NCBI GenBank assembly: GCA_963779415.1
Contig: CAVZYA010000003.1
Coordinates: 67,998 to 131,997 of the forward strand
Source: an uncultured Acidobacteriota bacterium
Lineage (GTDB): Bacteria > Acidobacteriota > Thermoanaerobaculia > UBA5066
Reading direction: 5' to 3'
DNA: 64,000 nt
The notes below the pieces were generated by a model. That model saw only the letters and a program-made list of their open reading frames with translations. It did no database searches and was not told where the DNA came from. Below, in pieces: positions 13,481 to 47,621 of the stretch (the stretch's first letter is position 1; each line of letters opens with the position of its first letter). The translations under genes were made by a program, and so were the position numbers.

Positions 13481-14872
13481 ATGATGCGCCGCATGTCCGA
13501 CCGCGAGCTTCTTCCCCGTGCCGCCGCCCTCGCCCTCCGCTACCGTGAATCGCTCGCCCGAAGGCCCGTCCGGGCCTCGGCCTCGCTCGCGGCCCTTCGC
13601 GCCTCGCTCGGAGGAGCGCTTCCCCGGACCGGGAGACCCGAGGCCGACGTCCTGGAGGAGCTCGCCTCCGCCGTCGAGCCGGGGCTCGTCGCCAGCTCGG
13701 GACCCCGGTACTTCGGCTTCGTCATCGGCGGCACCCTCCCCGTCGCGCTCGCCACGGACTTTCTGGTCTCGGCCTGGGACCAGAACCCGGGCCTCTTCGC
13801 GACGTCTCCCGCCGTCGCCGTCGTCGAGGAGACGGTCGCGTCGTGGATTCTCGACCTCCTCGGCCTGCCGCCCGAATCCGGGGTCGGCTTCGTCACCGGC
13901 GGCCAGATGGCGAACTTCACCGGCCTCGCCGCCGCGCGGCACGAGGTGCTTCGCCGGGCCGGGTGGAACGTCGAGGAGAGAGGGCTCGAGGGAGCCCCCC
14001 GCGTCCGCCTGATCGCCTCCGAAGAGGCGCACGTCACGATCTTCTCCTCGCTCCGTCTCCTCGGCTTCGGGGCCGGGACGGTCCGGCGGGTCCCGGCGGA
14101 CGACCAGGGCCGGATGCGGACGGACGCCGTCGCCGCCGCCCTCGCCGACGGGGAGGGCCCCGCGATCGTCTGTGCCCAGGCCGGCAACGTGAACACGGGG
14201 TCGTTCGACCCGTTTTCCCCGATCGCCGACGCCTGCGCCGCGCACGGCGCATGGCTCCACGTCGACGGCGCGTTCGGCCTCTGGGCGGCGGCGGCGCCCG
14301 CGCTCCGATCCCTCACGGACGGCGTCTCGCACGCGGACTCCTGGGCCGTCGACGCGCACAAGTGGCTCAACGTCCCGTACGACTGCGGGGTCGCGATCGT
14401 CCGGCACGCGGCGGCGCACCGGGCCGCGATGACGAGCGGGGCCGCCTATCTCATCCAGACGGCGGGAGCCGAGCGGGACAACTTCGAATGGGTCCCCGAG
14501 TTCTCCCGGCGGGCGCGCGCCCTGCCGGCATACGCCGCCCTTCGCACGCTCGGAAGAGAGGGAGTCGCGGCACTCGTGACCCGCGGGGCCGCTCTCGCGA
14601 GACGGATGGCGGAGCGGCTCGCGGCCGCGCCGGGCGTCGCCGTATTGAACGACGTCATCCTGAACCAGGTGCTCGTCCGGTTCGGCGACTCCGACGAGCG
14701 GACGCGCGCCGTCGTCTCCGGCGTCCAGGAGGAGGGGACCTGCTGGCTCTCGGGGACGACGTGGCACGGACGAGCGGCGATGAGAATCTCCGTCGTCGGA
14801 GCCTCGACGACCGAAGAAGACGCCGAGCGCTCGGTCGAGGCGATCCTCCGGGTCGCGCGCTCGAAAGGGTGA
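13481..14872 (+). CDS. Pyridoxal-phosphate-dependent decarboxylase (group II amino-acid decarboxylase family)
   Basis: 463-aa ORF with an S-x-HKW PLP-lysine motif (DAHKWLNVPYDCG) and a fold-type I aminotransferase-like core. It is one of the few plus-strand genes, divergent from the rpsL promoter and convergent with dxs. Confidence 0.75.
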   Translation: MMRRMSDRELLPRAAALALRYRESLARRPVRASASLAALRASLGGALPRTGRPEADVLEELASAVEPGLVASSGPRYFGFVIGGTLPVALATDFLVSAWDQNPGLFATSPAVAVVEETVASWILDLLGLPPESGVGFVTGGQMANFTGLAAARHEVLRRAGWNVEERGLEGAPRVRLIASEEAHVTIFSSLRLLGFGAGTVRRVPADDQGRMRTDAVAAALADGEGPAIVCAQAGNVNTGSFDPFSPIADACAAHGAWLHVDGAFGLWAAAAPALRSLTDGVSHADSWAVDAHKWLNVPYDCGVAIVRHAAAHRAAMTSGAAYLIQTAGAERDNFEWVPEFSRRARALPAYAALRTLGREGVAALVTRGAALARRMAERLAAAPGVAVLNDVILNQVLVRFGDSDERTRAVVSGVQEEGTCWLSGTTWHGRAAMRISVVGASTTEEDAERSVEAILRVARSKG

Positions 14873-14909
14873 ACGGATCAACCGGCCCGGCGCGGCCCGG
14901 GAGCCGGAC

Positions 14910-16859
14910 TCACGTCCAGTGGATCGTCTCGGCTGGGCTCTCGACGCCCTCGGCCGATTTCCCCCCTCCCGAAGGCGCCGACGGGCGTCCCAACTCCGGG
15001 TAAAGCTCCCTCACCGTCTCCACGACGCCCACCGCGTCGACCTTGAACCGGGCGCGCTGGAGATTCATGGGGCTGTGCTCGACGAACAGGTCGGGGACGC
15101 CATGGACGCGGACCCCCGCGGACGGAAGGCCGTGGGCGTGGACCGCCTCGAGGACGGCGCTGCCGAACCCGGCCTGGACGAGGTGCTCCTCCAGCGTCAG
15201 GAGCCGCGGCGAGGCGGCGAGGAGCGTCCGGATCAGGTCCACGTCGAGCGGCTTGGCGAAGCGCGCGTGCGCGACGCCGCAGTCGATCCCGAGGTCCCCG
15301 AGCACCCTGGCCGCCTGCACGGCCACCGGCACCATGGAACCGTAGGCGAGGAGGTTGACCGACCTTCCGGTCGTGAGGATCTCGCCCCTGCCGATCGGGA
15401 TCTCCCGGAACCCCTCCTCGAGGGGGACGCCCAGCCCGAGGCCGCGCGGGTAACGGATCGTGAAGGGACGCGCGGCGCGGACCGCCGTGTAGAGAAGGTG
15501 CTGGAGCTCGTTCTCGTCCTTCGGCGCGGAGACGATCATGTTCGGGATGCCGCGCGTGTAGGCGACGTCGTAGATACCCTGGTGCGTCTTCCCGTCGTCG
15601 CCCACGAACCCCGCGCGGTCGACGCAGATCACCACCGGAAGGTTCTGGAGGCAGACGTCGTGGATCAGCTGGTCGTAGGAGCGCTGGAGAAACGTCGAGT
15701 AGATCGAGACGATCGGCTTCAGCCCCGCCTTCGCCATCCCGCCCGCCATGATGATCGCGTGCTCCTCGGCGATTCCGACGTCGAAGACGCGGTCCGGGAA
15801 AGCCTTCGCCACCTCGACGAGTGCCGTTCCCTCCAGCATCGCGGCGCTGATCCCGACGATCTTCGGGTCCTCGGCCATCATTCTCATCAGCGTCCTGGCA
15901 AAGACCTGCGAGTACGTGTACGCCGCGCCCCCCCCGGCTGCCGCCGACGGCGTACCGGGCTGATGGAACCGCGTCGGGTCGTCCTCCGCGTTCGTGAAGC
16001 CGCGCCCCTTGTGCGTCAGCGCGTGGATGACGACCGGCGTGCCGTCCGCCGAGACCTCGCGGGCGCGCTTGAAGGCCTCCTCGAGCTCCGTGTAGTCGTG
16101 CGCGTCGATCGGCCCGACGTAGTGGAAGCCCAGCTCGTCCCAGACGAGGTTCGGGAAGAAGAGCCCTTCGACGGACGCCTTGACCTTCTTGGCGAGGCCC
16201 CACGCCTCTTCGCCCTTGGGGAGACGGCGGAAGAACTTGTGCCCCGTCTCGACGAGCTTCTGGTATCTCGGGTGAAGCTCGAAACGGTTCCGCCAGTGCG
16301 AGAGCCAGCCGACGTTCTCCGAAATCGACCAGCCGTTGTCGTTCAGGACGATGATGAGGCGCTTCGGGCGGACGTGGACGATGTTGTTGAGCGCCTCGTA
16401 GCTCGTCCCGCACGTGAGGGCGCCGTCACCGACGACGACGACCGTGTAGGGACGGGCGGGGTCGTCCTGGCCGGCGATCGCCATCCCGACGCCGTACGAG
16501 AGGCCCGTCCCGGCGTGGCCGGCCGCGAGCGTGTCGTGGTCGCTCTCCGCCGGTTCGGCGAAGCCGGAGAGCCCGCCCGGCGTCCGGATCGACGCGAACC
16601 GGTCGCGCCGCCCCGTGACGAGCTTGTGCGTGTAGCACTGGTTCGAGGTGTCGAAGACGAGCTTGTCCTTCGGGCTCTCGAACGCGCGATGGAGGGCGAG
16701 CGTCAGCTCGACGACGCCGAGGTTCGACGCGAGGTGCCCGCCTCTCTTCGTGATCGTCTCCACGATGACGTCCCGGCACTCCTGCGCGAGCTGCCGTAGC
16801 TCGTCGTGTCGGAGCGGGCGGAGGTCCTGCGGACCCTCGATGCGGCTCAGAATCGTCAT
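14910..16859 (-). CDS. dxs: 1-deoxy-D-xylulose-5-phosphate synthase
   Basis: 649-aa ORF MTILSRIEGPQDLRPL...GHLASNLGVVELTLALH..., with TPP-binding and transketolase-like domains; the frame is intact. Confidence 0.95.
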   Translation of the reverse strand: MTILSRIEGPQDLRPLRHDELRQLAQECRDVIVETITKRGGHLASNLGVVELTLALHRAFESPKDKLVFDTSNQCYTHKLVTGRRDRFASIRTPGGLSGFAEPAESDHDTLAAGHAGTGLSYGVGMAIAGQDDPARPYTVVVVGDGALTCGTSYEALNNIVHVRPKRLIIVLNDNGWSISENVGWLSHWRNRFELHPRYQKLVETGHKFFRRLPKGEEAWGLAKKVKASVEGLFFPNLVWDELGFHYVGPIDAHDYTELEEAFKRAREVSADGTPVVIHALTHKGRGFTNAEDDPTRFHQPGTPSAAAGGGAAYTYSQVFARTLMRMMAEDPKIVGISAAMLEGTALVEVAKAFPDRVFDVGIAEEHAIIMAGGMAKAGLKPIVSIYSTFLQRSYDQLIHDVCLQNLPVVICVDRAGFVGDDGKTHQGIYDVAYTRGIPNMIVSAPKDENELQHLLYTAVRAARPFTIRYPRGLGLGVPLEEGFREIPIGRGEILTTGRSVNLLAYGSMVPVAVQAARVLGDLGIDCGVAHARFAKPLDVDLIRTLLAASPRLLTLEEHLVQAGFGSAVLEAVHAHGLPSAGVRVHGVPDLFVEHSPMNLQRARFKVDAVGVVETVRELYPELGRPSAPSGGGKSAEGVESPAETIHWT

Positions 16860-17853: not shown

Positions 17854-17855
17854 GC

Positions 17856-18617
17856 TCAGATCATCTCCGGAAGGAGCCGCTCGAGGAAGAGGGCAAGCGC
17901 GGAGGCTCCGTCACGAACCCTTCCGCGCATCCGGAGAAGGCCGGGAAGAGCACCAGGATGGAGCACCAGTCGCCGGAAGACGGCGGCACGGTCCACCGAT
18001 CCGTCGCGAGAAAGAGAGGAGGAGAGAAACTCCGGGAGCGATTCTTCGAAGGTGTCCGAGACGGCGCGCAGCAGGGCGAACGGAACGCCCCGGCTCGCGG
18101 CGACCCGCGCCCAGGCCGCCGACTCCATGTCGACGACGGCCGAAGCGGAATCCGCGACGCCGAAGCGGACCGCGACGGCGCTCTTCTCCTTCGAAGAACA
18201 GATCGGCCTCGCCGTGCTCACGAGCGTCGCAGGCTTCGCGCCGAGGGCGGCCGCTCGGGCGATGAGCGAAGCATCGGGTGCGGGGGTCTCCCCCGATTCG
18301 TCGACGACATGCGAAGCCACGACGATCTCCCCCGCCTCGAGCGACGGGACGAGCGCTCCGGCGGCGCCGACGCCGACGAGAAAAGAGACCGGGAATTCTC
18401 TGAGAAGGAAGGAAACCGAGGCGGAGGCGCGCGCCGCGCCATCGCCCGACGCGACAAGCAGTACGGGAGCTCCGGAAATTCTTCCTCTAAGAAGAAATCC
18501 TCCGTCGCCCTTTCCCACGCGCAGGCGCTCCCCATTCCTCACGACCGCCGCAATCGCCTCGAACTCCTCCGGCATCGCCGTGACGATGGCGACGGGGCCC
18601 GGTTCAGGCCTTGACAT
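17856..18617 (-). CDS. hpnG: Hopanoid-associated phosphorylase HpnG-like (MTA/SAH nucleosidase, PNP/UDP family)
   Basis: 253-aa ORF VAIVTAMPEEFEAIAA...GAPVLLVASGDGAARA...; located between hpnA and sqs. Confidence 0.75.
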   Translation of the reverse strand: MSRPEPGPVAIVTAMPEEFEAIAAVVRNGERLRVGKGDGGFLLRGRISGAPVLLVASGDGAARASASVSFLLREFPVSFLVGVGAAGALVPSLEAGEIVVASHVVDESGETPAPDASLIARAAALGAKPATLVSTARPICSSKEKSAVAVRFGVADSASAVVDMESAAWARVAASRGVPFALLRAVSDTFEESLPEFLSSSLSRDGSVDRAAVFRRLVLHPGALPGLLRMRGRVRDGASALALFLERLLPEMI

Positions 18618-19600
18618 AGCCGTTCTCCCGGAACCAGGCGACGGCCCTTGTGAGCGCGTCCTCGACGGGGCTCTGCGGCAGGCCCAGCTCGCGGACCGCC
18701 TTCGAGGCGTCGAAGAACATCCGGTGGCGCGACATCCGGACGCTCTCGAGGCTGACGCGCGGCGGCCTTCCGAGAAAACCCGCCAGGAGAGTGTCGACCG
18801 CCGCCGCCGCGAGGGGGATCGCGTGCGGGAGCCGCAAGGTCGGCGCCGGGAGGCCGGTCGCCGCCGCGAGCATCCCGAGAATCTCCTTCAGCGTCAGGTT
18901 CCGGTTCCCGAGAATGTACTTCTCTCCGGGGCGCCCCTTTTCCGCGGCGAGGAGGTGGCCGACGGCGACGTCGCGGACATCGACGAGGTTCAGCCCCGTG
19001 TCGACGTAGGCGGGCATCCGGCGGTTCAGGAAGTCGACGATCGAGCTGGCCCGTCGGGGTCGGCTTGACGTCCCGCTCGCCGACCGGAGTGGACGGATTG
19101 ACGATGACGACCGGAAGCCCTCGGGCCGCGAAGGCCTCGGCCACCCGCTCGGCGTCGAACTTGCTCTTCTTGTAGTGCGCCGACGATCGCGTCGCGTGTG
19201 ACGGGCGTTCGTCTCGTCGGCCGGAGAGCCGTCCGCCGTGAGACCCAGCGCCCCGACGGAGCTGGTGTAGACGACGCGCGCGACCCCCGCGTCGGACGCG
19301 GCCGAAAGGACGTTCTCCGTGCCGCCGACGTTGGTCCGGTAGAGCTCCCCGGGATCCTTCGTCCAGAGGCGGTAGTCGGCCGCGCACGTGGTAGAGAGTC
19401 GAGACGCCGCGCATCGCGCGCGCGAGAGAAGGCGGATCGGAGAGGTCTCCTTCGACGAGGTCGACCGGGAGACCCTCGAGGTTCGTCCTCGGGCGGCCCG
19501 GCCCGGACGAGGCAGCGGACCGGGCGTCCGCGCGGCGAGGAGGGCCCGGACGACGTGCGCGCCGACGAAACCCGTTCCGCCGGTGACGAGGTTTACGCCG
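18604..19600 (-). pseudogene. hpnA: Hopanoid-associated NAD-dependent sugar epimerase HpnA, with the reading frame interrupted about 4 times (alternating frames). The boundary with hpnH (about 19600) is unresolved.
   Basis: Real HpnA segments (...NLVTGGTGFVGAHVVRALL; AADYRLWTKDPGELYRTNVGGTENV...VVYTSSVGALG; DFLNRRMPAYVDTGLNLV...ILGNRNLTLKEIL...) alternate with R/S/P junk. The missing pieces (TNLEGLPVDLVEGDLSDPPSLARAMRGVSTLYHV; HYKKSKFDAERVAEAFAARGLPVVIVNPSTPVGERDVKPTPTG) are found in an alternative frame. Confidence 0.7.
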
Positions 19601-20607
19601 CCAGCTCCCAGATTCCACGCGATCATCCGGACCATGTCGCCCGGGTGCTTCGGCAGCTCTCTCACGACGGACGCCTCGAAGCCCGAGTGCATCAGCGCAG
19701 TTCGCGCAGAGCGGGTCCTGCCGCGACTCCCAGTAGTCCCAGTCGGTGCCGTTCCAGAACTCCTCGAAGGTCTCCGACCAGGTCTTCCCGATCAGGTAGC
19801 AGGGGCCCTTCCACCCCTTCGGGGTGTAGGTCACCGTGCTCCAGGGCGAGCACTTGTAGTCGCGCAGGCCCGCGGCGAACTCGAGGAACATCGGCGTCGA
19901 CGTGAGCTTGTAGCTTCTTCGAGATCTCGAGGATCCGGCGGAACTTCCGCTGGATCTCCGAGCTGCGTCAGGAAGATCTCGTGGCCGACCGACTCGTAGT
20001 GGTAGCCGGGCGAGACGAGCATCCCCTCGACGCCGAGGTCCGTCAGGAACCGGCAGAGCTCCTCGACCTCCTCCACGCTCGTCTCCTTGAAGACGGTGGT
20101 GTTCGCCATGACATGGTGGCCGAGGCGGACGCCCTTCCGTGATCATCGCGACGGCCTTGTCGAACGACGCCTTCCTGCGCGCAGACGTAGTCGTGCGTCT
20201 CCTTCATGCCGTCGAGGTGGACGTTGATCATCAGCCGCTTGTGCGGCGGGATCCGGCCGTAGACCGTTCTCGTCGAGGAGGAGGCCGTTCGTGCAGAGGT
20301 AGATGTGGCGCTTGCGCTCGATGATCCCGTCCACGAGCTCCGGCAGCTCCGGGTAGAGCGTCGGCTCGCCGCCGCAGATCGAGACGACCGGCGCCTGCGA
20401 GACGTCGACGGCCTCGAGGCACTTCTCGAGCGGGAGCCGGTCCTTCAGCTTGCCGGTGTGGCGCTCGACGGCGCAGCCGAGGCAGGCGAGGTTGCAGGTG
20501 TAGAGCGGCTCGAGCATCAGGACGAACGGGTAGCGCTTGTTCCCGCGCACGGCGTTCCGGACCTGGTGCGCGATCGTGTCGGTCATGATGTGGACGGGGA
20601 ATCTCAT
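19600..20607 (-). pseudogene. hpnH: Radical-SAM adenosylhopane synthase HpnH, split over at least 4-5 frame changes
   Basis: The start MRFPVHIMTDTIAHQVRNAVRGNKRYPFVLMLEPLYTCNLACLGCAVE has the CxxxCxxC motif and overlaps the shc stop as ATGA. Later fragments lie in other frames: MINVHLDGMKETHDYVCAQEG; MANTTVFKETSVEEVEELCRFLTDLGVEGMLVSPGYHYE; RSEIQRKFRRILEISKK; KLTSTPMFLEFAAGLRDYKCSPWSTVTYTPKGWKGPCYLIGKTWSETFEEFWNGTDWDYWESRQDPLCANC; MMHSGFEASVVRELPKHPGDMVRMIAWNL. Confidence 0.7.
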
Positions 20608-22677
20608 CCGCTCGCTCCCTCGCGCCCGTCGCGGCGGGCCGTCGTGTCGGCTCCCGTGGAGCGGAACGTGCCGGCGGCCCCCGGGTCCGCCGCGTGCTCC
20701 CGCCGGTAGAGGGAAAGCGCCCAGAGCGGGAAGTACGTGGCGTAGAGATGGTAGCGGAGATAGAAGACCTTCGGGAAGCCCGTCCCCGTCCAGTGCTCGT
20801 CGCGCCAGGAGCCGTCGTAGTCCTGCTGGCGGAGAAGGTAGTCGACGCCGCGGCGGACGAAGTCCGAGTGGCGGTCGCCCGCTCGCGAAGAGGGCCATCA
20901 GGGCCCACGCCGTCTGCGCCGCCGTGCTCGGTCCCTTCCCCTTCGTCGCCGGGTCGTCGTACGAGCGCGGCAGCTCGCCCCAGCCGCCGTCGTCGTTCTG
21001 GCGGGCGCGAAGCCAGTCCGCGGCGCGCTGGTACCGCGGCTTCGCGAGGTCGACTCCGGCCTGCGCGAGGCCGCCGAGAGCGAGCCACGTGCCGTAGAGG
21101 TAGTTGACCCCCAGCGCCCGTACCAGGTTCCGTCGGCGCGCTGCTTGCCGTTCAGGAAGGCCACCGCCTTCCGGACGGCGGGGTCGCTCTCGGGGGCGCC
21201 GAGGTTGTGCAGGGCCTCGAGGACCCGGCCCGAGATGTCCTCGCAGCTCGGGTCGATCATGGCGTTGTGGTCCGCGAAGGGGATGAACGTCAGGATCTCG
21301 TTGTCGCACCCCTTGTCGAAAGCCCCCCAGCCGCCGTCCCGGTTCTGCATCGAGACGAGCCAGGCCTGGCCCCGTTCGAGGGCGTCGCGGCGTCGCGCTT
21401 CCTCGGCGGCGACGGAGAAGCGGACCTGTGTCAGGGCGGTCAGCACCTCGGCGGTGTCGTCCGTGTCGGGATAGAACTCGTTCGCGTACTCGAAGTACCA
21501 GCCTCCCGGCTCTCCCTCGGAGTTCGACTTCTTCCAGTCGCCCTCGAGCCGCACCTCGTGCTCGATCAGCCAGCGGGCGGCCTTCTGGAGCGCCGGATCC
21601 TCGGGAGGGCTCCCCGACTCCGAGAGCGCCACCATCGCGATCGCGGTGTCCCAGACCGGCGAGAAGCAGGGCTGGAGGCGAAGCGTTTCGTCGTCTTCCA
21701 GCTCGAGCCGCTCCAGCTCTTTCACCTGGGCGACGAGCCGCGGGTCGTCCGGGCCGTATCCGAGGCAGCGGAACGCGATGATCGTGTTGATGATCGGCGG
21801 AAAGATCGCGCCGAGGCCGTCGCTCTTCACGAGCCGGTCGTGGATCCACGCCTCACAGGCAGCGAGGGCCCTCTTTCGCAATGGCGCGGATCCCGATGGC
21901 TTCGATTCCGCGGAGGAACAGGTCGGTCGCCGAAAAGACGCTTCGCCAGACCTTTTCCCGCCCCGAGCGCTCGACGGCGGGCTTCTCGCGCCGCGGGACG
22001 TGGAGCTCGGGGATCCGCGCGTGCTCCGGCACCGGGCAGAACGGCTTCGTGGCCCAGATGACCGAGAGCGGCACGACGATGCCGCGCGACCACGACGACA
22101 TCTTGTAGATGTTGAACGGGACCCAGTCGGGCAGGAGGACGAGCTCGGGCGGCACCGCCGGGCAGTGCGTCCACGAACATTCGCCGAAGATCGCGAGGTA
22201 GATCTTCGTGAACGAGTTGCAGGCGTCGACGCCGCCGAGGCACCGGATCACGTCGCGCGCCTTCGCCATGTGGGGAGCGGACGGGTCGTCGCCGACGAGC
22301 TTGAGGACGAAGTAGGCCTTCACCGAGGTCGAGACCTCGGCCGGGCCGCCCGGGTAATTCGACCAGCCCCCCCCGGGGAGCTGGGCGCGGCGCACGTACT
22401 CGGCTGCCTTCTTCACCCGCGATTCTCCGGTCCGCCCGAGGAAATGCATGGCGAGGACGTATTCGGACTCTAGGATCGAGTCCCCTTCCAGCTCCGCGCA
22501 CCAGTGGCCGTCTTCTCTCTGGATCGAAAGGAGATAGCGACGCGCGGCCTCGACGGCGAACGAAACTCCTTCGGGAGGGGCCGCTCCGGCGGAAGGGCGC
22601 GGGTTCTGAGTCCCTTCGGCCATCGCCCCGGGAGGGTAATGCCTCCCGCCCGCCCGCGCAAGCCCGGGCTCCCTCAT
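20604..22677 (-). pseudogene. shc: Squalene-hopene cyclase with about 3 frame changes (near 21870, 21110 and 20870)
   Basis: The N-terminal piece (22677 down to about 21870) is ...VSFAVEAARRYLLSIQREDGHWCAELEGDSILESEYVLAMHF... The middle piece is ...QNRDGGWGAFDKGCDN...RADGTWYGRWG, with QW motifs. The next piece is GVNYLYGTWLALGGLAQAGV...STAAQTAWALMALFASGR. The C-terminus, found by hand in the -1 frame, is ...GVDYLLRQQDYDGSWRDEHWTGTGFPKVFYLRYHLYATYFPLWALSLYRREH..., and its stop overlaps the hpnH ATG. Confidence 0.75.
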
Positions 22678-26397: not shown

Positions 26398-27867
26398 TTA
26401 CGGGAAAGAGAATCCGGTGGAAGGCGACGGCGGCTGGTCCGTGGGGCTCCAGGCCCCGCCGAGAGCCGTGATGAGGCTGACGCTCGCCGTCATCTGCCTC
26501 GTCCGGATGTCCACGGCCACGCGCTCGATCGAGAGAGCCGCGGCCTGGGCCGTCACGACCTCGAGGTACGTCGTGACCCCTCCTTCGTAACGGTTCCGGG
26601 ACATCGTCACCGAGCGCTCGGCGGCCGCAACCGCCGCGGCCTGCTGCCGGGCCTCCTGCGAGAGGAGCCGGAGCGCCGCGAGGCTGTCCTCCACCTGGGC
26701 CAGCGCGGCGAGCACGTCGGCCCGATACGTCGCCACCGCCCCGTCGTAGGTCGCGCGGGCCTGCTCCTCGACGGAGCGTCTCTTCCCGGCGTCGAACAGG
26801 GTCTCGGCGAGCGCCGCCCCGACCGACCAGAAGAGGCTCGGCGCGGAGAAGAACTTCGCGATATCGGCGCTCTGCCATCCCCCGGTGGCCGAGAAGAGAA
26901 GTCGCGGAAAGAACGCCGCCGTCGCGACGCCGATCTGCGCATTCGCCGCCGCCATGCGGCGCTCCGCGGCGGCGACGTCCGGCCGGCGCTCCAGGAGCTC
27001 CGAGGGGAGTCCGACCGGAATCGCCGGAGGCCGGACCTCCGCCAGGTCCGGCGGCAGGGTGAAATCGGCCGGCGGCTTGCCGACGAGGATCGCGATCGCA
27101 TGCTCGAGCTGCGCCCTCGCGATGCCGACGTCCGTCGCCTGGGCGCGCGTCGCCTCGAGCTGCGTCCGGGCCAGAGCCACGTCCACCCCCGAAACGACGC
27201 CCTGCCGGTACCGGTTGAGCGTGAGCTGAAGCGCCTTCTCGTAGGCCGCGACGTTCGTCTCGAGAAGCCGCTTCTCGGCATCGGCCCCCCGGAGAAGGAA
27301 GTAGTCGAGCGCCAGCTCGGCGTGAAGGCTCAGGCGAACGGCTTCGAGATCGGCCGCGCTCGCCTGTGCGGTCGCCACGCTTTCTTCGACGTTCCTCCGG
27401 ACGCGCCCCCAGACGTCGGCTTCCCACGAGACCGCGAGCGGCAGCTGGAAGTCGTTGCCGGTGGTCCGGGGGGTGCCGGCCGGCGTCCCGGGCGCGGTCG
27501 TCGACGAGCTGCCTCGGACCGCGGAGGGCGCCGTCGCCACGGTCGGGAAGAGATCGGCGCGCGCTCCCTGGACCGCCGCGCGCGCCCCCCGGAACTGCGC
27601 ATCGGCCAGGGCGAGGTTCTGGTTCGAGACGTCGATTTCGGCCTCGAGTCCGTTCAGGACGGGGTCGCCGAAGATCTCCCACCAGCTTCCGCGGGACGCG
27701 CCGTCCCGAGGCTCTGCTCTCTTCCAGGCGTCGGGGTCGGCCGCACCGGCCGGCACGAGCTCCTTGTAGGCCGCCGGCACGCTCGCCGGAGGCTTCTGAT
27801 AGTCCGGGCCGACGGCGCAGGCTGAAAGGAGAAGCACCGTCGAAGCGACGAGGACGCGGCGAGCCAT
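26398..27867 (-). CDS. RND efflux outer membrane factor lipoprotein, NodT family
   Basis: The start MARRVLVASTVLLLSACAVGPDYQKPP has a lipobox; OMF repeats follow. The start overlaps the stop of the upstream RND pump as TGATG. The tracked 1397-aa ORF is an artificial run-on into antisense of mdtC. Confidence 0.85.
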   Translation of the reverse strand: MARRVLVASTVLLLSACAVGPDYQKPPASVPAAYKELVPAGAADPDAWKRAEPRDGASRGSWWEIFGDPVLNGLEAEIDVSNQNLALADAQFRGARAAVQGARADLFPTVATAPSAVRGSSSTTAPGTPAGTPRTTGNDFQLPLAVSWEADVWGRVRRNVEESVATAQASAADLEAVRLSLHAELALDYFLLRGADAEKRLLETNVAAYEKALQLTLNRYRQGVVSGVDVALARTQLEATRAQATDVGIARAQLEHAIAILVGKPPADFTLPPDLAEVRPPAIPVGLPSELLERRPDVAAAERRMAAANAQIGVATAAFFPRLLFSATGGWQSADIAKFFSAPSLFWSVGAALAETLFDAGKRRSVEEQARATYDGAVATYRADVLAALAQVEDSLAALRLLSQEARQQAAAVAAAERSVTMSRNRYEGGVTTYLEVVTAQAAALSIERVAVDIRTRQMTASVSLITALGGAWSPTDQPPSPSTGFSFP

Positions 27868-30800: not shown

Positions 30801-30971
30801 CTCGGGGCTCGCTCCCGGAAGCCCCGCCGAGACGCTGATCGTCGGGAAGTCCACCTGGGGCAGCGGCGACACGGGGAGGAACCGGTAGCCGATCGCGCCG
30901 GCCAGGGCGATCGCGACCATCAGGAGGGTCGTGGCGATCGGCCGGCGGATGAACGGCGCCGAGAGGTTCAT
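27867..30971 (-). CDS. mdtC: RND multidrug efflux transporter, MdtC-like (intact)
   Basis: About 1034 aa from MNLSAPFIRRPIATTLLMVAIALAGAIGYRFLPVSPLPQVDFPTISV..., ending ...RLRWEKVRRGLVRRVVPALGRT. Its start overlaps the mdtB stop as ATGA. Confidence 0.88.
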   Translation of the reverse strand: MNLSAPFIRRPIATTLLMVAIALAGAIGYRFLPVSPLPQVDFPTISVSAGLPGASPETMASSVATPLERQFGRIAGVTEMTSSSSLGSTNVTLQFDLNRNIDAAARDVQAAINAARGQLPANLPNNPWYRKVNPADAPIMLLALTSDVVGRPKMYDIAASILQQKLSQVGGVGQVFVGGGALPAVRVEVNPTALNNNGLSLEDVRAVLASANANRPKGELASIDRAWSLSTTDQLLKAAEYRPLLVRYRNGAAVTLEDVARVTDSVENVLNAGLANGKPAVIIIVFRQPGANIIETVDGVRAALPQLQAAIPPTIKLSVMIDATRTIRASVRDVEITLLIAISLVVLVVFVFLRSARSTFIPTVAVPISLVGTFGVMYLLGYSIDNLSLMALTIATGFVVDDAIVVVENITRHVEGGMKPMEAALLGAKEIGFTVISMSLSLVAVFIPILLMGGLVGRLFREFAVTLSVAIGISMVVSLTATPMMCARLLRPHGEERRGRLNRASERAFTRILGGYERSLGWVLRHQRLTIAVTLGTMAATVYLYAKIPKGFFPQQDTGRMNGSIVGDQDASFQSMRGKLTEFVKTLMEDPAIESAAGFLGGGTVNTGRVFAGLKPVGERDVTVDQVIARLRGKLAHVPGATLYLQAIQDVRMGGRFGAAQYQYTLQGDDPNELFQWAPRVYEKLRTLRELADVNSDQQNKGLQAALTIDRNTASRLGITQQVIDDTLYDAFGQRQVSTMYTSLNQYHVVMAVDSQFWQNPDGLKQIYVRGSGGGMVPLAAFTHFEANTAPLQVNHQGQFPSVTISFNLPVGVALGTAVDAIQRARAEIRLPADIRGSFQGTAQAFQASLANEPILIAAALLAVYIVLGILYESLIHPLTILSTLPSAGVGALLALLFFRTELSVIALIGVFLLIGIVKKNGILMIDFAIEAERREGKSPEEAIFQACMLRFRPITMTTMAALLGGLPLAIGGGTGSELRRPLGIAIVGGLIFSQMLTLYTTPVVYLYLDRFRLRWEKVRRGLVRRVVPALGRT

Positions 30972-33900: not shown

Positions 33901-34093
33901 GGTCACCCCGGAGGCCATGACGTCCGGGCTGGCCCCGGGGTAGAACGTCACCACCTGGATCGTCGGATAGTCCACCTGCGGGAGCGCCGAGACGGGGAGC
34001 TGCCGGTAGCCGATCGCCCCGGCGATGAGAAGCCCCGCCATCAGGAGCGACGTGGCGATCGGGCGAAGGATGAACGGGCCGGGACGGGTTCAT
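30968..34093 (-). pseudogene. mdtB: RND multidrug efflux transporter, MdtB-like, with 3 same-direction frame changes (near 34070, 33667 and 32025)
   Basis: The pieces are: MNPSRP; then [41 protein letters not shown]...ILTLG; then ...[37 protein letters not shown]...[10 protein letters not shown]; then [27 protein letters not shown]...MLDDALYDSFGQRQVSTMF...RLAHRFMGSR... The first junction is a CCC homopolymer. Confidence 0.8.
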
Positions 34094-36025: not shown

Positions 36026-39000
36026 TCATGTCAGGGGGTGGCTTCCGGAATGAGGAATCGAAACGCCGTCGAGGCGTATCGTCGTCCCCCGCTCCGGCGC
36101 GGAATGGACCTCCAGCCGGCCGCCGAGCGCCGACGCCCGCTCGGACATGTTCCCGAGCCCCCTTCCTTCCCCCTCCCGGTTCGCGTCCGGCACGGAGAAG
36201 CCGACCCCGTCGTCGCGAACTTCGACCTTCAAGGGCCCGCCCGGAGAGCGAAAAACGGGCCTCGAGGGTACGGGCCCGGGAATGCCTCGCCGCGTTCGTG
36301 ATCGCCTCCTTCAGAAGGAGGAAGAGATGCCGACGCGTCTCGGCCGGAAGCTCCACGGCCGAGGCCCCCTCCGGCAGGGTGAGGCGGAATTCGATTCCCC
36401 GCCCTTCGAGAAGATCCGAGGCGAAGAGGCGGAGCCGGTCGCCGAGGCTCTGGAGGTCGTCGCGCCGGGGGTCGATCGACCAGATCGCGTCGCCGAGGGC
36501 GTCGATCACGGAGCGGGAGGTCTCGCCGATCTGCTCGAAGAGGCGGGCGGAGTCGCTCCCCTCCTCGACCGCCCGGTGTCCGACCTCGGAGAGGATCGAG
36601 ATCCGGGCGAGGCTGGAGCCGACGTCGTCGTGAAGGTCGGTCGCGAGGCGGGTCCGGATTCTCTCGACCGCCACGGCGCGCTCGAGTCGCTGCCGGTGGA
36701 GGACGAAGACGGCGAGGACGACGGCGGCGGCGACCGAGACGAGAAACCAGCCACGTCGCCAGAGCGGCGGAAGGACCTGGAAACGGAACGCGGCCTCCTC
36801 TCCCGCCTCTCCTCCCGGCCCGACGGCGCGCACCGCGAACCCGTAGCGCCCCGGCGCCAGCCCCACGTACCGGATCGTCGGTTCGGGGCTCGGAGGGCTC
36901 CACGCGGCGTCGGCCCCCTCGAGGAACGTCTGGAACCGCACCCTTCCCCCCTGCGCGAACTGCGGGGCCGCAAAGTCGATCCGGAGTCGCGTCTCGTCCG
37001 GCGCGAGCGAGAGGCCGGGAAGCTCCCGCGCGCCGAGCTCGGGCACCGGGCGCGAATTGCCGTTCACGCGAACGGCCATGACGAGGGCGCGCGGCGGAGA
37101 CGCGGGCGGGTCGGGCACCGGGACGAGACGGGAGACCCCTTCGGGCGTCCCGAACCAGAGCGCGCCGTCCCGATCCTCGAGCGCGCAGGTCACGACGTTG
37201 TTCGCGAGCCCGTCGGCCGTCGAGAAGTGGCGGAACCGTCCGCTCTTCGGATCCAGCCGGTCCACGCCGCGCGCCGTCCCGAAATAGAGAAATCCCTGCC
37301 GGTCCGCGGCGACCGCGTAAACGCTGCCGGTGGCCGGCCCCTCGCTCGTCACGAGGCTCGTGGCGAGCGGGTGATCGGCCGCCGGAGCGTCGATCCGGAC
37401 GACCCCCGCGCTTCCGTTCGCCACCCAGAGGCGCCCGCGCCCGTCGAGGAAAAAATTCCGTGCGAGCCCCTCGGGGACCCCTTCCGCGGGCCCGAGTCGG
37501 AGGAAACTCCCGTCGCGCCGCCGGACGATCCCTCCGGAGCCGAAGGCGATCCAGAGATCCGCGCCGCTCTCGAGAAACGCGACCGGGGTCCCCGGCGGGA
37601 GGCCGTCCTTCGGGCCGAACGACTCGAAGCGGCCTTCGGCCCTGTCGAAGCGCGAAAGCGGTTCGGTCGCGTCGTAGAAGCCGATCCAGATGTCGCCGCG
37701 GGAGTCCTCGAAGAGCGCCGCGACGTCTCCCCCGCCGAGCCCGTCCCGCGCCGTGAGGAGGGCTTTCGGCCTGGCGCGCCCGAGATCCTCGAATGGGAGA
37801 GGTCCGTAGCGGGCGAGCCCCGACGGCATGGCGATCCACCAGTCGCCGCGACGGTCGCAAAGGACGGTGCGGCCCCAGAGGAGCCGGCTCGACGCCGGAG
37901 CTTCCGGCCGGAGAGGCACGGCATGGAATCGCGCCCCGTCGAAGCGGTAGAGGTTCGCGTTTCCGGCAGACGTCGCGACCGGATGGCCGCCCGGATCGAG
38001 AAAGAGTGACGTGATCCGCGGGTTCGAGAGGCCGTCGGCGTCGCCGAAACGCGTGAAGCCCGCGGACGAGAGGCGAAGGAGCCCGGTGCTCTGCGTTCCG
38101 ACCCAGACGTTTCCCGCGTCATCCTCGAGCAGCTCGCCGAGGATTCCGTCGCCGAGGCCGTTCCTCCGGGTGAACGTGGTCCGCCGTCCGCCGCCGAGAA
38201 CGATGAGGCCGGCCGTGGAGGAGACGAGGATCCGGCCGTCCTTCGTTTCGAGGAGGCGCTGGAAGAGGCCGCGCGGCTCCGACAGGGACGCGCTGAGGAT
38301 GGCAGCCTCGCCGGGCCCCGGGAGTCGAAGTATGCCGTCCGATCCGAGGAGGGGGCGCGCCGGAGGCATCGCGCCGCCCGGTTCCGGGGTGAAGACGGCA
38401 ACGAACTCCGGCGTCGCCGCCCAGAGGCGGCCCGACCGGTCGAGCAGCAGTCCGCGGACATCCCCGGGACCTCCGCCGGAGCCGAGCGTCACCCGCTCGA
38501 CCGGGAGGCCGCGGCGAATCCGGAAGAGACCCCGGGAAGTTCCGACCCAGAGGACGCCGTCTTCGGCATCCACGGCCACGCGGACGATCCCGACCCCGGG
38601 GGGAAGCCCGGCCGCGAGCGCCTCTTTCCCCGAGATCCGATAGAGCTCACCGCCGCTTCCGAACCAGACCTCTCCGTTTCGGTCGACGAAGACGAACTCC
38701 ACGGACCGACCTCCGGCCTTCGCCGGGTCCGCGGGAAGGAAGACCGGACGCTCCGACGTGTGCGACGGGTCGAGGCGGACGAGTCCGCCGCCCGTCGCGA
38801 CCCACACGGTCCCGTCCCGCCCTTCCGCGAGCGCCCAGACGCGAAGTTTAGGAAGGCCGTCCTCGAGGCCGTAGACCTTGAACCGCTCGCCGTCGAAGCG
38901 GGAGAGCCCGTTCAGCGAGCCGGCCCAGAGGTAGCCGCGCGAGTCGCGGAGGAGCGCCGTGACGGTCTCCTCCGCGAGCCCCTCGGCCACGCCGTGGCGC

Positions 39001-39092
39001 TGCACCGGCAGCTGCTCCGCACGCACGACCATGGGAATGAGGAGACCCAGGATGGCGGGAATGCCGAGCCGCCGGGCGATCGCGGGCCACAT
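36026..39092 (-). pseudogene. Sensor histidine kinase with a very large periplasmic beta-propeller (two-component regulator propeller / Y_Y_Y-like). There is a single frame change near the C-terminus, about 36235.
   Basis: About 760 aa of repeated ...DG.LW.GT..GL.R.. propeller blades, a TM helix (FLVSVAAAVVLAVFVL), then HisKA_3 (TRLATDLHDDVGSSLARISILSEVG) and the HATPase start. The true C-terminus MKVEVRDDGVGFSVPDANREGEGRGLGNMSERASALGGRLEVHSAPERGTTIRL lies in the adjacent frame (36026..36232). Confidence 0.75.
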
Positions 39093-43268: not shown

Positions 43269-43284
43269 CCGGCGGCGGAATCTG

Positions 43285-45321
43285 TCAGCGTGCTTTCCCG
43301 GCTTCCTTCGCCTTCCACTCCGGGCGCTCGTCCCAGCCGAGCCGGTGTGCCGTCTCCTCGTTGATCGTTCCGTCCTCGTTGAGAGTGCCGTTGGCCTTCA
43401 GGCGGCGGACGCTCTCGGCAGGGAGTCCTTTCGCAAATGTGTCGTCCTTCGAGCGGGGCACGAACATCTGGTTCTCGACGATAGGCTGATGATCCGCGAA
43501 GGCTTTTCGAACTCCGTTGACCATGTAGTCGAACTCCACGTCCGCCGACCCCTTGATGACGATCCGGTTCAGGTCCTTGCTCACGCAGGCAAGAACAGCA
43601 AGGTCACCACTGGGAAGGGCCTGTATCGTCAACCCGCTGGCGCTCGTGACCATCCGGAAGTCCTCGGGCACCTCGATCGTCGCGAAGCCGCCGACGATCC
43701 GCGCCGTGCCGCGGAAGTACGTTCCCGCCTCGGGTCCTTCGAGGCAGACGTATCGGATCTCCTTGGTCGGGTCGGTCGGATGCGGCTCGACGAAGTACTT
43801 CGCTCCGTCACCCAGGAAGGCGCCGTGGGAAAAGACGCCGTATCCCGGTCCGCCGAGGTATCCAATCGTCCCGCCGGCGGCATGTCCAATGACGCCCGCG
43901 GCATTACCACCGTATGTGGATCCCTCGATGGCGTTGTTCACGTCGCTCGATGCAAAGATGCCACGCCCAGAACTGGACTGCGCATCCACACCATCGCCGG
44001 AGCCCGAATAGGCCGAGACTCCGGGCCCGTTTGTCGATCTTCCCAAGACACCGGCGTCGCCCGTGCCCGTTACGACCCCGTACACACCATAGCCAGTGCC
44101 GCCGAGATAGCCGTCGTTGTTGGTGGCGGTGCTGTGCCCGTGGACTCCGAAACCGTTATTGATCTGCGTGATCCCGGAAACCCCGGCGTAGCTTCCACCT
44201 CCGGTGGACGTGCCGACGACGACATCGGCGCCGGCCGCCGTCAGGCTCAGGGGCACCGCGACCGACAGCTTCGATCCCGACGTCCCGTTGCCGACGAGGG
44301 TGCCGTCGTGCGCTACCGCCGTCAGGCCTCCTCCCCCGCCCCCGGCGGCGTCGATCGTGATCGTGTTGCCTACCTGGCTGACCGTCGTGTTCACCCCCGC
44401 GGCGATCGTGACGGCGCCCGTGAGCCCGTTCAGGCTCGCCACGCCGGCACCGAGCAGGCTGTCCTTGAAGCTCATCTCGAATCCCGCCGCATCGTTCGAG
44501 CCGGGGACGGCCGTCGTCCCGGCCACCTGGGTTCCGTAAAGAAGGACCTTGCCCGCCCCGGCGAGCACCTCCGCCAGGAGAATCGCGTTCGTCGTCGAGA
44601 TCGCCGGCGAGAAGCCCGCAAACGCATTCACCTGCCGCGCCTCGAAGGCCCCCAGGTCGTATTGCTGAACCCCGAGGCTGGCGCCGGTTGCGTCCTTCAC
44701 GGTCACTCTCACCGACACCGGATGACCCGTCGTCTCCACGAGACCGAAGTTGTAGCGGTAATTCTCCAGGGGACCGTTCGTGATCCCCTGCAGCCGCGAC
44801 ACGTCACCGGCTCCGAGGGCAAAGGTGGCGGGAATCCCCGAGAAGAAGAGCGCCTTGACGTCCTTCAGCTCCGTGCCGGGCGGCTGGTCGTACGTCCTCG
44901 ACGAGACGAAGACCTCCTGGTCCGAGACGACGTGCAACGCTCCGCCCCCGGACTCCCCGAGGTACGTCACGACGTCGTCGATACGCTGCGTGGCCCCCGC
45001 CGCGATCACCTCCGTCTTCGTCGTCGGAGCGGGGTTCGTCTGACCCTGCCGGAGGAACTGGATCGTCACGTTCGCCGGAGCACCGCCCAGGTTCGTCACC
45101 CAGAGCGTGGAGTAGAACTGGCTGCCGCCAGTCCCGGGGGTCCGGGCCGTCGCCGGGATGAAGACGTTCGTCCCGGCGAAACCCGCCTGAAGACGGGTCG
45201 CGAACAGAATGAGAACGAGCAAAGCGGACAGCCGGCACACGCAGCGAGAAATCATCGAAGTCTCCTTGTTGAGACAGGATATCAACCAGAGGCTTCGTTC
45301 ACCAGTCCCGGGACTGGTCAC
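43285..45321 (-). CDS. Secreted uncharacterized protein, paralog A. Conserved N-terminal domain, hypervariable Gly/Tyr/Ser-rich centre, conserved C-terminal domain.
   Basis: 678 aa. Signal peptide MISRCVCRLSALLVLILFATRLQAGFAG; an N-terminal domain of about 360 aa; a centre ...GFGVHGHSTATNNDGYLGGTGYGVYGVVTGTGDAGVLG...; then C-terminal GTIGYLGGPGYGVFSHGAFLGDGAKYFVEPHPTDPTKEIRYVCLEGPEAGTYFRGT...SVRRLKANGTLNEDGTINEETAHRLGWDERPEWKAKEAG. An AAGGAGA ribosome-binding site lies upstream. Confidence 0.75.
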   Translation of the reverse strand: MTSPGTGERSLWLISCLNKETSMISRCVCRLSALLVLILFATRLQAGFAGTNVFIPATARTPGTGGSQFYSTLWVTNLGGAPANVTIQFLRQGQTNPAPTTKTEVIAAGATQRIDDVVTYLGESGGGALHVVSDQEVFVSSRTYDQPPGTELKDVKALFFSGIPATFALGAGDVSRLQGITNGPLENYRYNFGLVETTGHPVSVRVTVKDATGASLGVQQYDLGAFEARQVNAFAGFSPAISTTNAILLAEVLAGAGKVLLYGTQVAGTTAVPGSNDAAGFEMSFKDSLLGAGVASLNGLTGAVTIAAGVNTTVSQVGNTITIDAAGGGGGGLTAVAHDGTLVGNGTSGSKLSVAVPLSLTAAGADVVVGTSTGGGSYAGVSGITQINNGFGVHGHSTATNNDGYLGGTGYGVYGVVTGTGDAGVLGRSTNGPGVSAYSGSGDGVDAQSSSGRGIFASSDVNNAIEGSTYGGNAAGVIGHAAGGTIGYLGGPGYGVFSHGAFLGDGAKYFVEPHPTDPTKEIRYVCLEGPEAGTYFRGTARIVGGFATIEVPEDFRMVTSASGLTIQALPSGDLAVLACVSKDLNRIVIKGSADVEFDYMVNGVRKAFADHQPIVENQMFVPRSKDDTFAKGLPAESVRRLKANGTLNEDGTINEETAHRLGWDERPEWKAKEAGKAR
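44200..45300. repeat. Direct repeat copy 1 (about 1.1 kb, near-identical to 46480..47545): the N-terminal-domain coding region plus 5' leader of the paralog genes
   Basis: The antisense ORFs 44204..44539 and 46486..46824 translate to identical 100+ aa strings, and the upstream leaders share TGTTGATAT[C/T]CTGTC[T/G]CAACAAGG. Confidence 0.7.
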
Positions 45322-45377
45322 GGGTGATCCTCGTCCCCCGCCACGACGTGATCCGAGAGGGATCTACGGAGGGATTC

Positions 45378-47540
45378 TCAGCGAGTTGGTCCGGCTTCCT
45401 TCGCCTTCCACTCCGGCCGTTCGTCCCAGCCGAGCCGGTGCGCCGTCTCCTCGTTGATCGTCCCGTCCTCGTTCAGGGTGCCGTTGGCCTTCAGGCGGCG
45501 GACGCTCTCCGCAGGGAGCGCCTTCGCGAACGTGTCGTCCTTCGAGCGCGGCACGAACATCTGGTTTTCGACGATCGGCTGGTGATCCGCGAAGGCCTGC
45601 CGGACGCCGTTGACCATGTAGTCGAACGCCACGTCCTTCGACCCCTTGATGACGATCCGGTTCAGGTCCTTGCTCACGCAGGCCAGCATCGCAAGGTCGC
45701 CGTTCGGCGTGACCTGCACCGTCAGCCCGCTTTCGCTCGTGACGATCCGGAAGTCCTCGGGCACCTCGATCGTCGCGACTCCGCCGACGATCTTCGCCGT
45801 GCCGCGGAAGTACGTCCCCGCTTCGGGTCCCTCGAGGCAGACGTACCGGATCTCCTTCGTCGGGTCCGTCGGATGCGGCTCGACGAAGTATTTCGCCCCG
45901 TCGCCGAGGAAGGCGCCGTGGGAGAAGACGCCGTAACCCGGACCGCCGAGGTATCCGATCGTCCCGGCGGCCGCGTACCCGGCGACACCGGCGGCAGTAC
46001 TCCCTTCCGTCGAGCCCTCGATGCCGTTGTTGTGCACGCTGAACGCAGCGACGCCGCGGCCCTGTTGAGAAGACGCCTGGATGGCATCACCCGCCAAGGT
46101 GCTCCCGTAGACGCCGACGCCGGTGCCAGATCCTACCCCTTCTATCGCGACGCCGCCGTTATCGCTCATTCCAACGACGCCCGCGTAGGCATGGCCAAGG
46201 TACCCGTCCGTGTTCGCGTAGTTGTTGTGTCCGTGAACTCCCGAGGAAAACTCGCCATTCGTCTGGCCATAGATCCCGTCGCCACTACTCGACTGGCCGT
46301 AGACGCCTTTGCCACTGCCGGCCTGGCCCATCACCCCGTTGCCGCTGGCGTCCGTCGCGACACCGTAGACACCGTAGTCGTTTCCCCCGAGGTACCCGTC
46401 GGTGTTGTTGTTGTTGCTGTGCCCGTGGACGCCGAAGCCGCTGTTGCTCTGGGTCACCCCGTAGAAGCCGGCGACGCTGGCGAAATTGCCCGTCGTCGCG
46501 GTGACCACGTCGGCACCTTGGGCGCTGAGGGTCAGGGGCACCGCGACCGACAGCTTCGATCCCGACGTCCCGTTGCCGACGAGGGTGCCGTCGTGCGCTA
46601 CCGCCGTCAGGCCTCCTCCCCCGCCCCCGGCGGCGTCGATCGTGATCGTGTTGCCTACCTGGCTGACCGTCGTGTTCACCCCCGCGGCGATCGTGACGGC
46701 GCCCGTGAGCCCGTTCAGGCTCGCCACGCCGGCACCGAGCAGGCTGTCCTTGAAGCTCATCTCGAATCCCGCCGCATCGTTCGAGCCGGGGACGGCCGTC
46801 GTCCCGGCCACCTGGGTTCCGTAAAGAAGGACCTTGCCCGCCCCGGCGAGCACCTCCGCCAGGAGAATCGCGTTCGTCGTCGAGATCGCCGGCGAGAAGC
46901 CCGCAAACGCATTCACCTGCCGCGCCTCGAAGGCCCCCAGGTCGTATTGCTGAACCCCGAGGCTGGCGCCGGTTGCGTCCTTCACGGTCACTCTCACCGA
47001 CACCGGATGACCCGTCGTCTCCACGAGACCGAAGTTGTAGCGGTAATTCTCCAGGGGACCGTTCGTGATCCCCTGCAGCCGCGACACGTCACCGGCTCCG
47101 AGGGCAAAGGCGGCGGGAATCCCCGAGAAGAAGAGCGCCTTGACGTCCTTCAGCTCCGTGCCGGGCGGCTGGTCGTAGGTCCTCGACGAGACGAAGACCT
47201 CCTGGTCCGAGACGACGTGCAGCGCTCCGCCCCCGGACTCCCCGAGGTACGTCACGACGTCGTCGATCCGCCGCGTGGCCCCCGCCGCGATCACCTCCGT
47301 CTTCGTCGTCGGGGCGGGGTTCGTCTGCCCCTGCCGGAGGAACTGGATCGTCACGTTCGCCGGCGCGCCGCCCAGATTCGTCACCCAGAACGTGGAGTAG
47401 AACTGGCTTCCGCCGGAGCCGGGGGTCCGGGCCGTCGCCGGGATGAAGACGTTCGTCCCGGCGAAACCGGCCTCAAGGCGGCTCGTGAAAAGAACGAAGA
47501 CGAGCAGAGCGGACAGCCGGCACGCGCAGCGAGAAGATCA
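45378..47540 (-). CDS. Secreted uncharacterized protein, paralog B (tandem duplicate of A). A 1-nt indel inside the signal-peptide codons separates the ATG near 47540 from the main frame (tracked ORF 45378..47384).
   Basis: The main frame is near-identical to paralog A over the N-terminal domain. The centre differs in length and sequence (GVHGHSNNNNTDGYLGGNDYGVYGVATDASGNGVMGQAGSGKGVYGQSSSGDGIYGQTNGEFSSGVHGHNNYANTDGYLGHAYAGVVGMSDNGGVAIEGVGSGTGVGVYGS...). The C-terminal domain is about 90 % identical. Confidence 0.7.
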
Positions 47541-47545
47541 TCGAT
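46480..47545. repeat. Direct repeat copy 2 (pairs with 44200..45300)
   Basis: Same as above. Confidence 0.7.
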
Positions 47546-47621
47546 TCCCCCTTGTTGCGACAGAATATCAACAGGAGTCCTCCGTCACCAGCCACGCCGG
47601 CGAGTCAATGGCGCTCAGTCC

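Follow-up and report, generated by a model that had tools for sequence, protein, structure and literature searches.

Do the broken reading frames at the hopanoid locus of an uncultured Thermoanaerobaculia bacterium tell us about the organism, or about the sequence that was deposited for it? The window, by which we mean the whole analysed stretch of 64,000 nucleotides (GenBank assembly GCA_963779415.1, contig CAVZYA010000003.1, positions 67,998 to 131,997), carries frame breaks in the hopanoid genes shc, hpnH and hpnA, in the RND permease gene mdtB, in a sensor histidine kinase gene, in one of two tandem paralogs and in rpmC, the gene of ribosomal protein L29. We found 22 breaks in total, all of a single base (21 extra bases and one missing base), and we are highly confident that they are an assembly artefact, that is, a property of the deposited sequence and not of the organism. 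An earlier note on this DNA had recognized such breaks, estimated them at 16-19, and left a choice between an assembly artefact caused by homology-guided polishing and genuine pseudogenization. The breaks exist, although their number was underestimated; an artefact is what we arrive at, but neither the proposed kind of polishing nor pseudogenization fits the evidence given below. A consensus error localized to strain-variable segments is an explanation that was absent from that note.

Frame breaks were mapped with a purpose-written protein-to-DNA aligner with explicit frameshift states, using as references the orthologues from two relatives (L003 and L084) and the window's own mdtC. Break positions were refined by base-level alignment to near-identical contigs. 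tblastn alone was rejected for this task, since its gaps bridged the frame changes and hid them. The G+C content at third codon positions and frame tracing with a hidden Markov model served as a guide only, as their positions are approximate and glycine-rich or low-complexity coding DNA was mislabelled as non-coding. Apparent frameshifts near the starts of fusA and dxs, and others at the shc termini of relatives, came from the alignment of stop-to-stop open reading frames (ORFs) or from variable termini and are not real. A protein of 1461 aa (P0121) that resembled a fused call made on the source sequence proved not to be encoded in the window.

The alignments gave three breaks each for shc and mdtB and one each for the sensor kinase and one paralog (the upstream copy), as the earlier note had it, while the four to five breaks counted there in hpnH and the four in hpnA became six in each gene, with one more in their overlap (Table 1). 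The distribution is far from random. Sixteen breaks, 15 extra bases and the missing one, lie within 2,844 bp of hpnA-hpnH-shc (19041-21885; binomial P ~1e-17), and five of the other six fall in a region between 26.4 and 47.7 kb that is discussed below as an island. Non-randomness had been claimed before at about 1e-4 and is thus much stronger than stated, but the division into broken accessory and clean core genes does not hold, as many accessory genes are clean and L29 is a broken core gene. Insertions outnumber deletions by 21:1 (two-sided P = 1.1e-5). Only about 5 of the 20 located insertions add to a run, itself of 1-2 bases, and long homopolymers contain none of them. The suggestion that some junctions are in homopolymers, such as CCC at the start of mdtB, is inaccurate in its details: the extra base there is a G after the CCC. 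The single deletion does lie in a G run (GGGGCG in the relatives). At about 21108 in shc, where the relatives have TGGGGCGTC, the window has TGGGGGTC; this is the only case of a classical long-read error.

Table 1. Positions in the window of the genes with frame breaks, of intact neighbours and of the surrounding gene blocks. Square brackets enclose an extra base.
Feature	Coordinates	Strand	Remarks
hpnA (NAD-dependent epimerase/dehydratase, hopanoid cluster)	18604..19618	-	Extra bases at 19041, 19179, 19211, 19384, 19500, 19531
hpnH/hpnA overlap	19604	-	One further +1
hpnH (radical SAM adenosyl-hopene transferase)	19593..20607	-	Extra bases at 19696, 19915, 19962, 20132, 20165, 20266
shc (squalene-hopene cyclase)	20604..22677	-	+1 at 21885, -1 at ~21108, +1 at 20883
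mdtB-like RND permease	30968..34093	-	Extra bases at 34075 (CCC[G]TTC), 33667 (CT[T]GGCC), 32033 (GTC[A]GCC)
Sensor histidine kinase (Reg_prop/Y_Y_Y, HisKA_3, HATPase_c)	36026..39074	-	Extra base at 36230 (CTT[G]AAG)
Upstream tandem paralog (secreted, family unassigned)	45378..47541	-	Extra base at 47536, codon 2-3 (ATGAT[C]TTCTCG; other paralog ATGAT-TTCTCG)
rpmC (L29), A/K/P-rich C-terminal tail	3550..4045	-	One extra base in the tail, roughly 3551-3700; supported by gene geometry
mdtC	27867..30971	-	Intact control adjoining broken mdtB; 1033/1034 residues aligned to L084, no frameshift
Downstream tandem paralog	43285..45255	-	Orphan, no Pfam match, frame unbroken
Ribosomal protein operons, tuf, fusA	1-13 kb		Low-coordinate end of the window
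Pyridoxal phosphate (PLP)-dependent decarboxylase (+), dxs, squalene/phytoene-synthase-family gene, hpnG, hpnA, hpnH, shc			Gene order onward
OEP/MacB/MFP efflux operon, then OEP/mdtC/mdtB/MFP RND operon			Beyond shc
LuxR-type response regulator, large sensor kinase, Ser/Thr kinase, cytochrome c, two tandem paralogs (family unassigned)			Beyond the RND operon
rpoC, rpoB, rplL/J/A/K, nusG, tRNAs, ispF, ispD, frr, pyrH			High-coordinate end

Apart from the single-base breaks, the affected genes look normal. In the frameshift-aware and base-level alignments, the repaired genes contain neither in-frame stops nor indels of more than one base. Repaired hpnA is 83% identical to the L003 orthologue, with no stops, repaired hpnH is 92% identical to intact 335-aa database proteins and repaired shc is 88% identical to an intact database protein. 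Repaired mdtB, also free of stops, shares 972 of 1040 residues with the L084 orthologue, and its best intact homologue is 93% identical. As they stand in the window, the kinase ORF has no HATPase_c domain by Pfam, as this domain is cut off by the break at 36230 and reads in a neighbouring frame, and the ATG-ATC start of the upstream paralog is out of frame with the remainder of the gene. Owing to the frame change in its tail, the L29 ORF continues for 293 codons, to position 3164; our best guess for the extra base is AAA[G]ACT at 3616. By contrast with these, rpoB, rpoC, fusA, tuf, dxs, the SQS-family gene and every ribosomal protein gene except rpmC are unbroken, and so are the accessory genes mdtC, both OEP/TolC genes, both MFPs, MacB, the response regulator, the Ser/Thr kinase, cytochrome c and the downstream paralog; here the list of uninterrupted genes drawn up earlier was right. 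For MFP1, OEP1, MFP2, MacB and OEP2, this follows from the same frameshift-aware alignment to L084.

Evidence for an artefact comes from assemblies made independently from this population, or from one nearly identical to it, which we found by exact protein sequence look-up. Two sequencing runs, ERR12035936 and ERR11594405, contributed Logan contigs. These are k=31 de Bruijn assemblies from which singleton k-mers are dropped (PMC12424806), and their consensus method is independent of the window's, whatever the read platform of the runs. From ERR12035936 we used a contig of 3.3 kb (L002), which matches window 16707-20017, and one of 4.7 kb (L083), which is 99.5% identical over window 34717-39023; the ERR11594405 contigs were compared from gene calls, that is, by protein lengths and start-to-start distances. 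A further sequence, L001, is a raw unbinned metagenome contig with a Flye-style name (ENA ERZ25039517, contig_128744).

Fifteen of the 22 sites are contradicted by these assemblies, which have shc, hpnA, the kinase and L29 intact, with proteins of 690, 335, 1015 and 164 aa, respectively. L002 encodes an SQS-family protein identical to that of the window together with the intact hpnA, and compared with it, the window carries 10 extra single bases between 19041 and 19962. In L083, a response regulator identical to that of the window stands beside the intact kinase, complete with HATPase_c, and the only gap in the alignment is the extra G at 36230. The ERR11594405 contigs carry OEP2, hpnG, SQS and S17 proteins identical to those of the window. 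One of them has the identical OEP (435/435 aa) followed by the intact shc, and the starts of shc and hpnH lie 2069 nt apart as compared to 2070 nt in the window, which fits +1, -1 and +1. On another, the identical S17 is preceded by the 164-aa L29, with a start-to-start distance of 525 nt instead of 526 nt; this bears out the break in the rpmC tail that had been mentioned earlier as a possibility. A comparison with close genomes had been recommended in the earlier note; hpnH is intact at 71 of 71 relatives' loci (25/25 Flye-named, 46/46 short-read).

We also noted a length variant near the 3' end of hpnG. At 17942, CCC or CCCC gives a protein of 253 aa (window, L001 and ERR11594405) or of 235 aa (L002 from ERR12035936). 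As each version is present in an independent assembly, the difference seems to be a genuine polymorphism between strains and not an error.

The breaks coincide with segments in which strains of the population differ. Population contigs diverge by 0.5-2.4% in the affected segments and by 0-0.04% in clean ones. L002 shows no single-nucleotide polymorphism (SNP) against the window over 2.27 kb (16707-18972) but 25 SNPs within the 1.05 kb that follow, and this boundary at 18972/18973 is where the error-dense stretch begins. The hpnG contig of ERR11594405 ends at 19011, adjoining the SNP site 19012 between window and L002. Such an end is expected if both haplotypes co-occur in ERR11594405, as de Bruijn contigs end in this way at a within-sample polymorphism. 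In the kinase region, 22 SNPs in 4.3 kb separate L083 from the window, and L083, L003 and L004 are structurally different within 26.4-47.7 kb. Among the clean segments, L001 aligns with window 6933-18315, 11.4 kb of core genes, at 99.965% identity with four mismatches and no gaps.

Strain collapse with merging of alleles is the specific mechanism that we tentatively favour as the more probable one, judging from the sequence. The window is presumably the consensus of a long-read metagenome assembly of a Thermoanaerobaculia population, most probably made with a Nanopore-only metaFlye and Medaka workflow of the Microflora Danica type. That workflow uses Flye (metaFlye) on Nanopore reads and a single Medaka round, and it includes neither short-read nor reference polishing (PMC12313526); strains with about 98.65% identity are collapsed by Flye (PMC8302730). 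The Microflora Danica Nanopore project is the origin of many of the nearest metagenome-assembled genomes (MAGs), whose contigs bear Flye-style names. Further indirect indications of a long-read origin are the size of the source contig, 0.2-1 Mb, and the Flye-style name of L001. Co-occurring strains would have been collapsed by Flye into one sequence, and at a polymorphic site both alleles may have been retained as adjacent bases, giving a short supersequence of two haplotypes. Each read would then align with a cheap one-base deletion and not with a mismatch, and a +1 insertion would appear in the consensus. We propose that the excess of insertions, their avoidance of long homopolymers and their clustering in strain-variable DNA arise because alleles were merged, and that rpoB, rpoC and the ribosomal cores are clean because they are near-identical between strains.

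We examined, for each of the 20 located insertions, if the extra base and one beside it could represent two alleles of a single site. Sixteen can be read as a synonymous allele pair, whereas only 43% of simulated random insertions in the window's intact genes can (P = 8.6e-4). Among the sites placed by near-identical DNA, the proportion is 9 of 12, with CTT/CTG at 36230, ATT/ATC (both Ile) at 47536 and, in hpnA, GCC/GCG, GTG/GTC, GGG/GGC and AGA/CGA as examples. Among those placed with orthologues it is 7 of 8 (for example CCC/CCG, CTT/CTG, CGC/CGG and GCG/GCA). Moreover, for three of the four exceptions, both alternative codons are present in L002 or in orthologues: 19041 is GTC (Val) in L002 and ATC (Ile) in orthologues, AACG at 20266 spans AAC and ACG, both found in orthologues, and AAGC at 19915 spans AAG (orthologues) and AGC (L002).

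Several points weigh against this account. The fourth exception, 19696, has no supporting second allele, and the kinase region, with its 22 SNPs relative to L083, has a single insertion, so that merging would be far from obligatory at polymorphic sites. The synonymous-pair test has only moderate power, and the base placement of eight sites depends on orthologues of 84-92% identity. We infer the merging step from sequence signatures only, and in the literature searched, we found no paper that explicitly describes both alleles retained as adjacent bases. For seven sites (three in hpnH, three in mdtB and one in the paralog) there is no near-identical independent sequence, since exact look-ups with the L16, MFP1, mdtC, MacB, rpoC and OEP1 proteins gave no match; in protein searches, the closest full-length matches to shc, hpnH and mdtB had 88-93% identity.

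A plain artefact without merging of alleles would equally leave the genes intact in independent assemblies. In this case, long-read depth would have been very low or uneven over hpnA-hpnH-shc and a few other spots, and a near-unpolished consensus would have kept random indels; a possible cause is that the segment belongs to just one of several collapsed strains. The extreme clustering suits this explanation, 16 indels per 2.85 kb are within the error range of raw long reads, and L001 suggests a co-occurring variant without shc-hpnH-hpnA at the locus, which would halve the depth. Raw Nanopore errors are not dominated by insertions, however, and the ratio found here is 21:1. The insertions also avoid homopolymers, and the codon-position and synonymy signal exceeds the random-insertion null in the test described above. 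Nor is a generic problem of the chemistry involved, as the loci of Flye-named relatives show no credible internal frameshift in shc (23 loci) or hpnA (24 loci). As low coverage does not account for the insertion bias and the codon-position signal, we regard this simpler explanation as rather unlikely, though it deserves serious consideration. That a homology-guided frameshift corrector had repaired the conserved proteins and left poorly conserved accessory genes broken, as proposed earlier, would agree with the clean core genes, and such tools exist (proovframe, homopolish, MEGAN-LR; PMC9262707). Yet the broken genes have hundreds of close intact homologues (92% identity for hpnH, 93% for mdtB, 88% for shc) and would have been fixed, while untemplated or poorly conserved genes, namely the downstream paralog, OEP2 (61% to its L084 orthologue) and the Ser/Thr kinase, are intact. 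Moreover, the raw unbinned L001 is free of gaps against the window over the 11.4 kb of core genes, and the documented workflow of the closest data set contains no such step (PMC12313526). We consider this reading barely credible.

Genuine pseudogenization, in which real mutations accumulated under relaxed selection on hopanoid synthesis, one RND pump, the sensor kinase and a paralog, has in its favour that most of the genes concerned can be dispensed with in the laboratory sense, that L001 may represent a strain whose hopanoid genes no longer stand beside hpnG and SQS, and that the 26-48 kb island varies in structure between strains. We nevertheless judge it to be very improbable. The disruption is not reproduced at the 15 sites with independent data, where shc, hpnA, the kinase and L29 are intact on contigs whose neighbouring proteins are identical to those of the window, and hpnH is intact at every one of the relatives' loci. 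Bacterial mutation is deletion-biased, which is opposite to 21 insertions and one deletion, and nonsense codons and multi-base indels are missing. The 13 insertions in 1.2 kb are accompanied by only about 2.4% of mostly synonymous substitutions. Neutral decay does not fit this pattern, since 13 independent neutral indels would bring many more, unconstrained substitutions. Against L002, the SNPs in hpnH and hpnA are 15 synonymous and 10 non-synonymous, most of the latter conservative, and against L083 those in the kinase region are 17 synonymous and 5 non-synonymous. In addition, L29 would be prolonged across S17 and L14 if its frameshift were real. We also considered, and rejected, programmed frameshifting and phase variation, given 13 shifts in 1.2 kb, no slippery or repeat motifs, and intact sister sequences.

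The artefact, with its proposed merging of alleles, resembles several known phenomena without matching any of them fully. Like the ORF-truncating long-read errors addressed by the IDEEL test (PMC9262707), it consists of single-base consensus indels that split genes and are absent from other assemblies, and the contig context of the window and its relatives point to Nanopore-only Flye/Medaka data. Classical errors of this kind differ in being homopolymer-length errors, spread over the genome and dependent on coverage, whereas the breaks in the window are insertions in 21 of 22 cases, almost never lie in homopolymers and are crowded, 16 of them, into 2.85 kb. The collapse of strains by metaFlye, described in the Strainberry paper for strains of about 98.65% identity (PMC8302730), is similar in that the contigs diverge in the affected segments; this type of literature is concerned with lost strain resolution and contigs rich in single-nucleotide variants, and the signature of adjacent alleles was not among what we found there. 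With pseudogenes under relaxed selection, as in Mycobacterium leprae, the locus shares several frameshifts per gene of a dispensable pathway beside intact informational genes; it differs in having no deletion bias, no nonsense codons, no large indels and no excess of non-synonymous changes, and in the intact sister sequences of the population. Reference-based correction (PMC9262707) would also leave clean conserved genes beside broken unconserved ones, but in this window the broken genes are highly conserved and some of the clean ones are orphans.

Hence, shc, hpnH, hpnA, mdtB, the sensor kinase, both paralogs and L29 should be read as intact once their frames are repaired. If the window were accepted as it stands, it would lead to a wrong metabolic and evolutionary inference, namely the loss of hopanoids or of an efflux pump in a soil Thermoanaerobaculia lineage. 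The warning that accessory-gene calls here are unsafe was justified, as gene callers split or fuse the affected genes: shc breaks up into three ORFs, mdtB and mdtC become one in-frame fusion, the kinase is left without its ATPase domain and L29 extends over S17. For catalogues of long-read MAGs, this means that errors can concentrate in strain-variable segments, with a genome-wide quality that is fine and an accessory pathway that is shredded. If the insertion-only signature at synonymous sites is general, such segments could be flagged and repaired cheaply. Speculatively, and with considerable doubt on our side, the artefact might even mark real microdiversity, that is, a polymorphism of the hopanoid locus with one strain perhaps lacking shc-hpnH-hpnA here (compare L001 at 18315), and the +1 signature could serve as a read-free marker of collapsed strains in Flye/Medaka assemblies. 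If true, this would make it possible to detect and repair such segments automatically in tens of thousands of public long-read MAGs. The biological interest of the breaks is low; their methodological interest is modest, provided that the signature is general in long-read MAG catalogues.

The window has a G+C content of 68%, and nearly all of its genes are on the minus strand. By a scan of the species representatives of GTDB, its closest relatives are Thermoanaerobaculia/Acidobacteriota MAGs, which are syntenic at about 80% DNA identity. The hopanoid cluster (shc, hpnH, hpnA, hpnG, the SQS-family gene and dxs) has the same order in the relatives L003-L005 and L084, and the Pfam domains found in it are SQHop_cyclase_N/C, radical SAM with PF11946, epimerase, PNP_UDP_1, SQS_PSY and DXP synthase. 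L001 departs from the window at 18315, inside hpnG. Its positions 1-9538 are unrelated DNA (EutN/CcmL, class II aldolase, ferredoxin and RNase H) with no hpnA-hpnH-shc. Either a rearrangement in one strain has parted the hopanoid genes, or the contig is chimeric. The hpnG-hpnA join of the window is backed by two Logan contigs.

In L003 and L004, rpoC directly adjoins the MFP/MacB/OEP operon. The window thus contains a lineage-specific island of about 21 kb (26400-47700), made up of the RND pump, the two-component system, the Ser/Thr kinase, cytochrome c and the tandem paralogs, of which at least the RND part is common to L005 and L084. In L083 (positions 1-370), the DNA upstream of the kinase joins directly to a sequence that matches window 45377-45624, the 3' end of the upstream paralog, at 92.7% identity, and the block of Ser/Thr kinase, cytochrome c and paralog (window 39023-45624) is therefore absent or rearranged in that strain. 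The tandem paralogs themselves, of about 660-720 aa, have a signal peptide and no Pfam match. Their first ~330 and last ~190 residues are nearly identical, and the glycine-rich, repetitive middle differs by a block of 64 residues; the region upstream of the genes is duplicated as well.

Two further features were noted. A PLP-dependent decarboxylase gene (Pyridoxal_deC, 13481-14872), located between rpsL and dxs, is the sole clear plus-strand gene in the 64 kb. Long, low-complexity C-terminal extensions rich in Ala, Pro and Lys are present in L29 (3550-4045), S19 (5731-6084) and L22 (~5156-5630), and the extension of L29, of about 100 residues, resembles the tail of histone H1.

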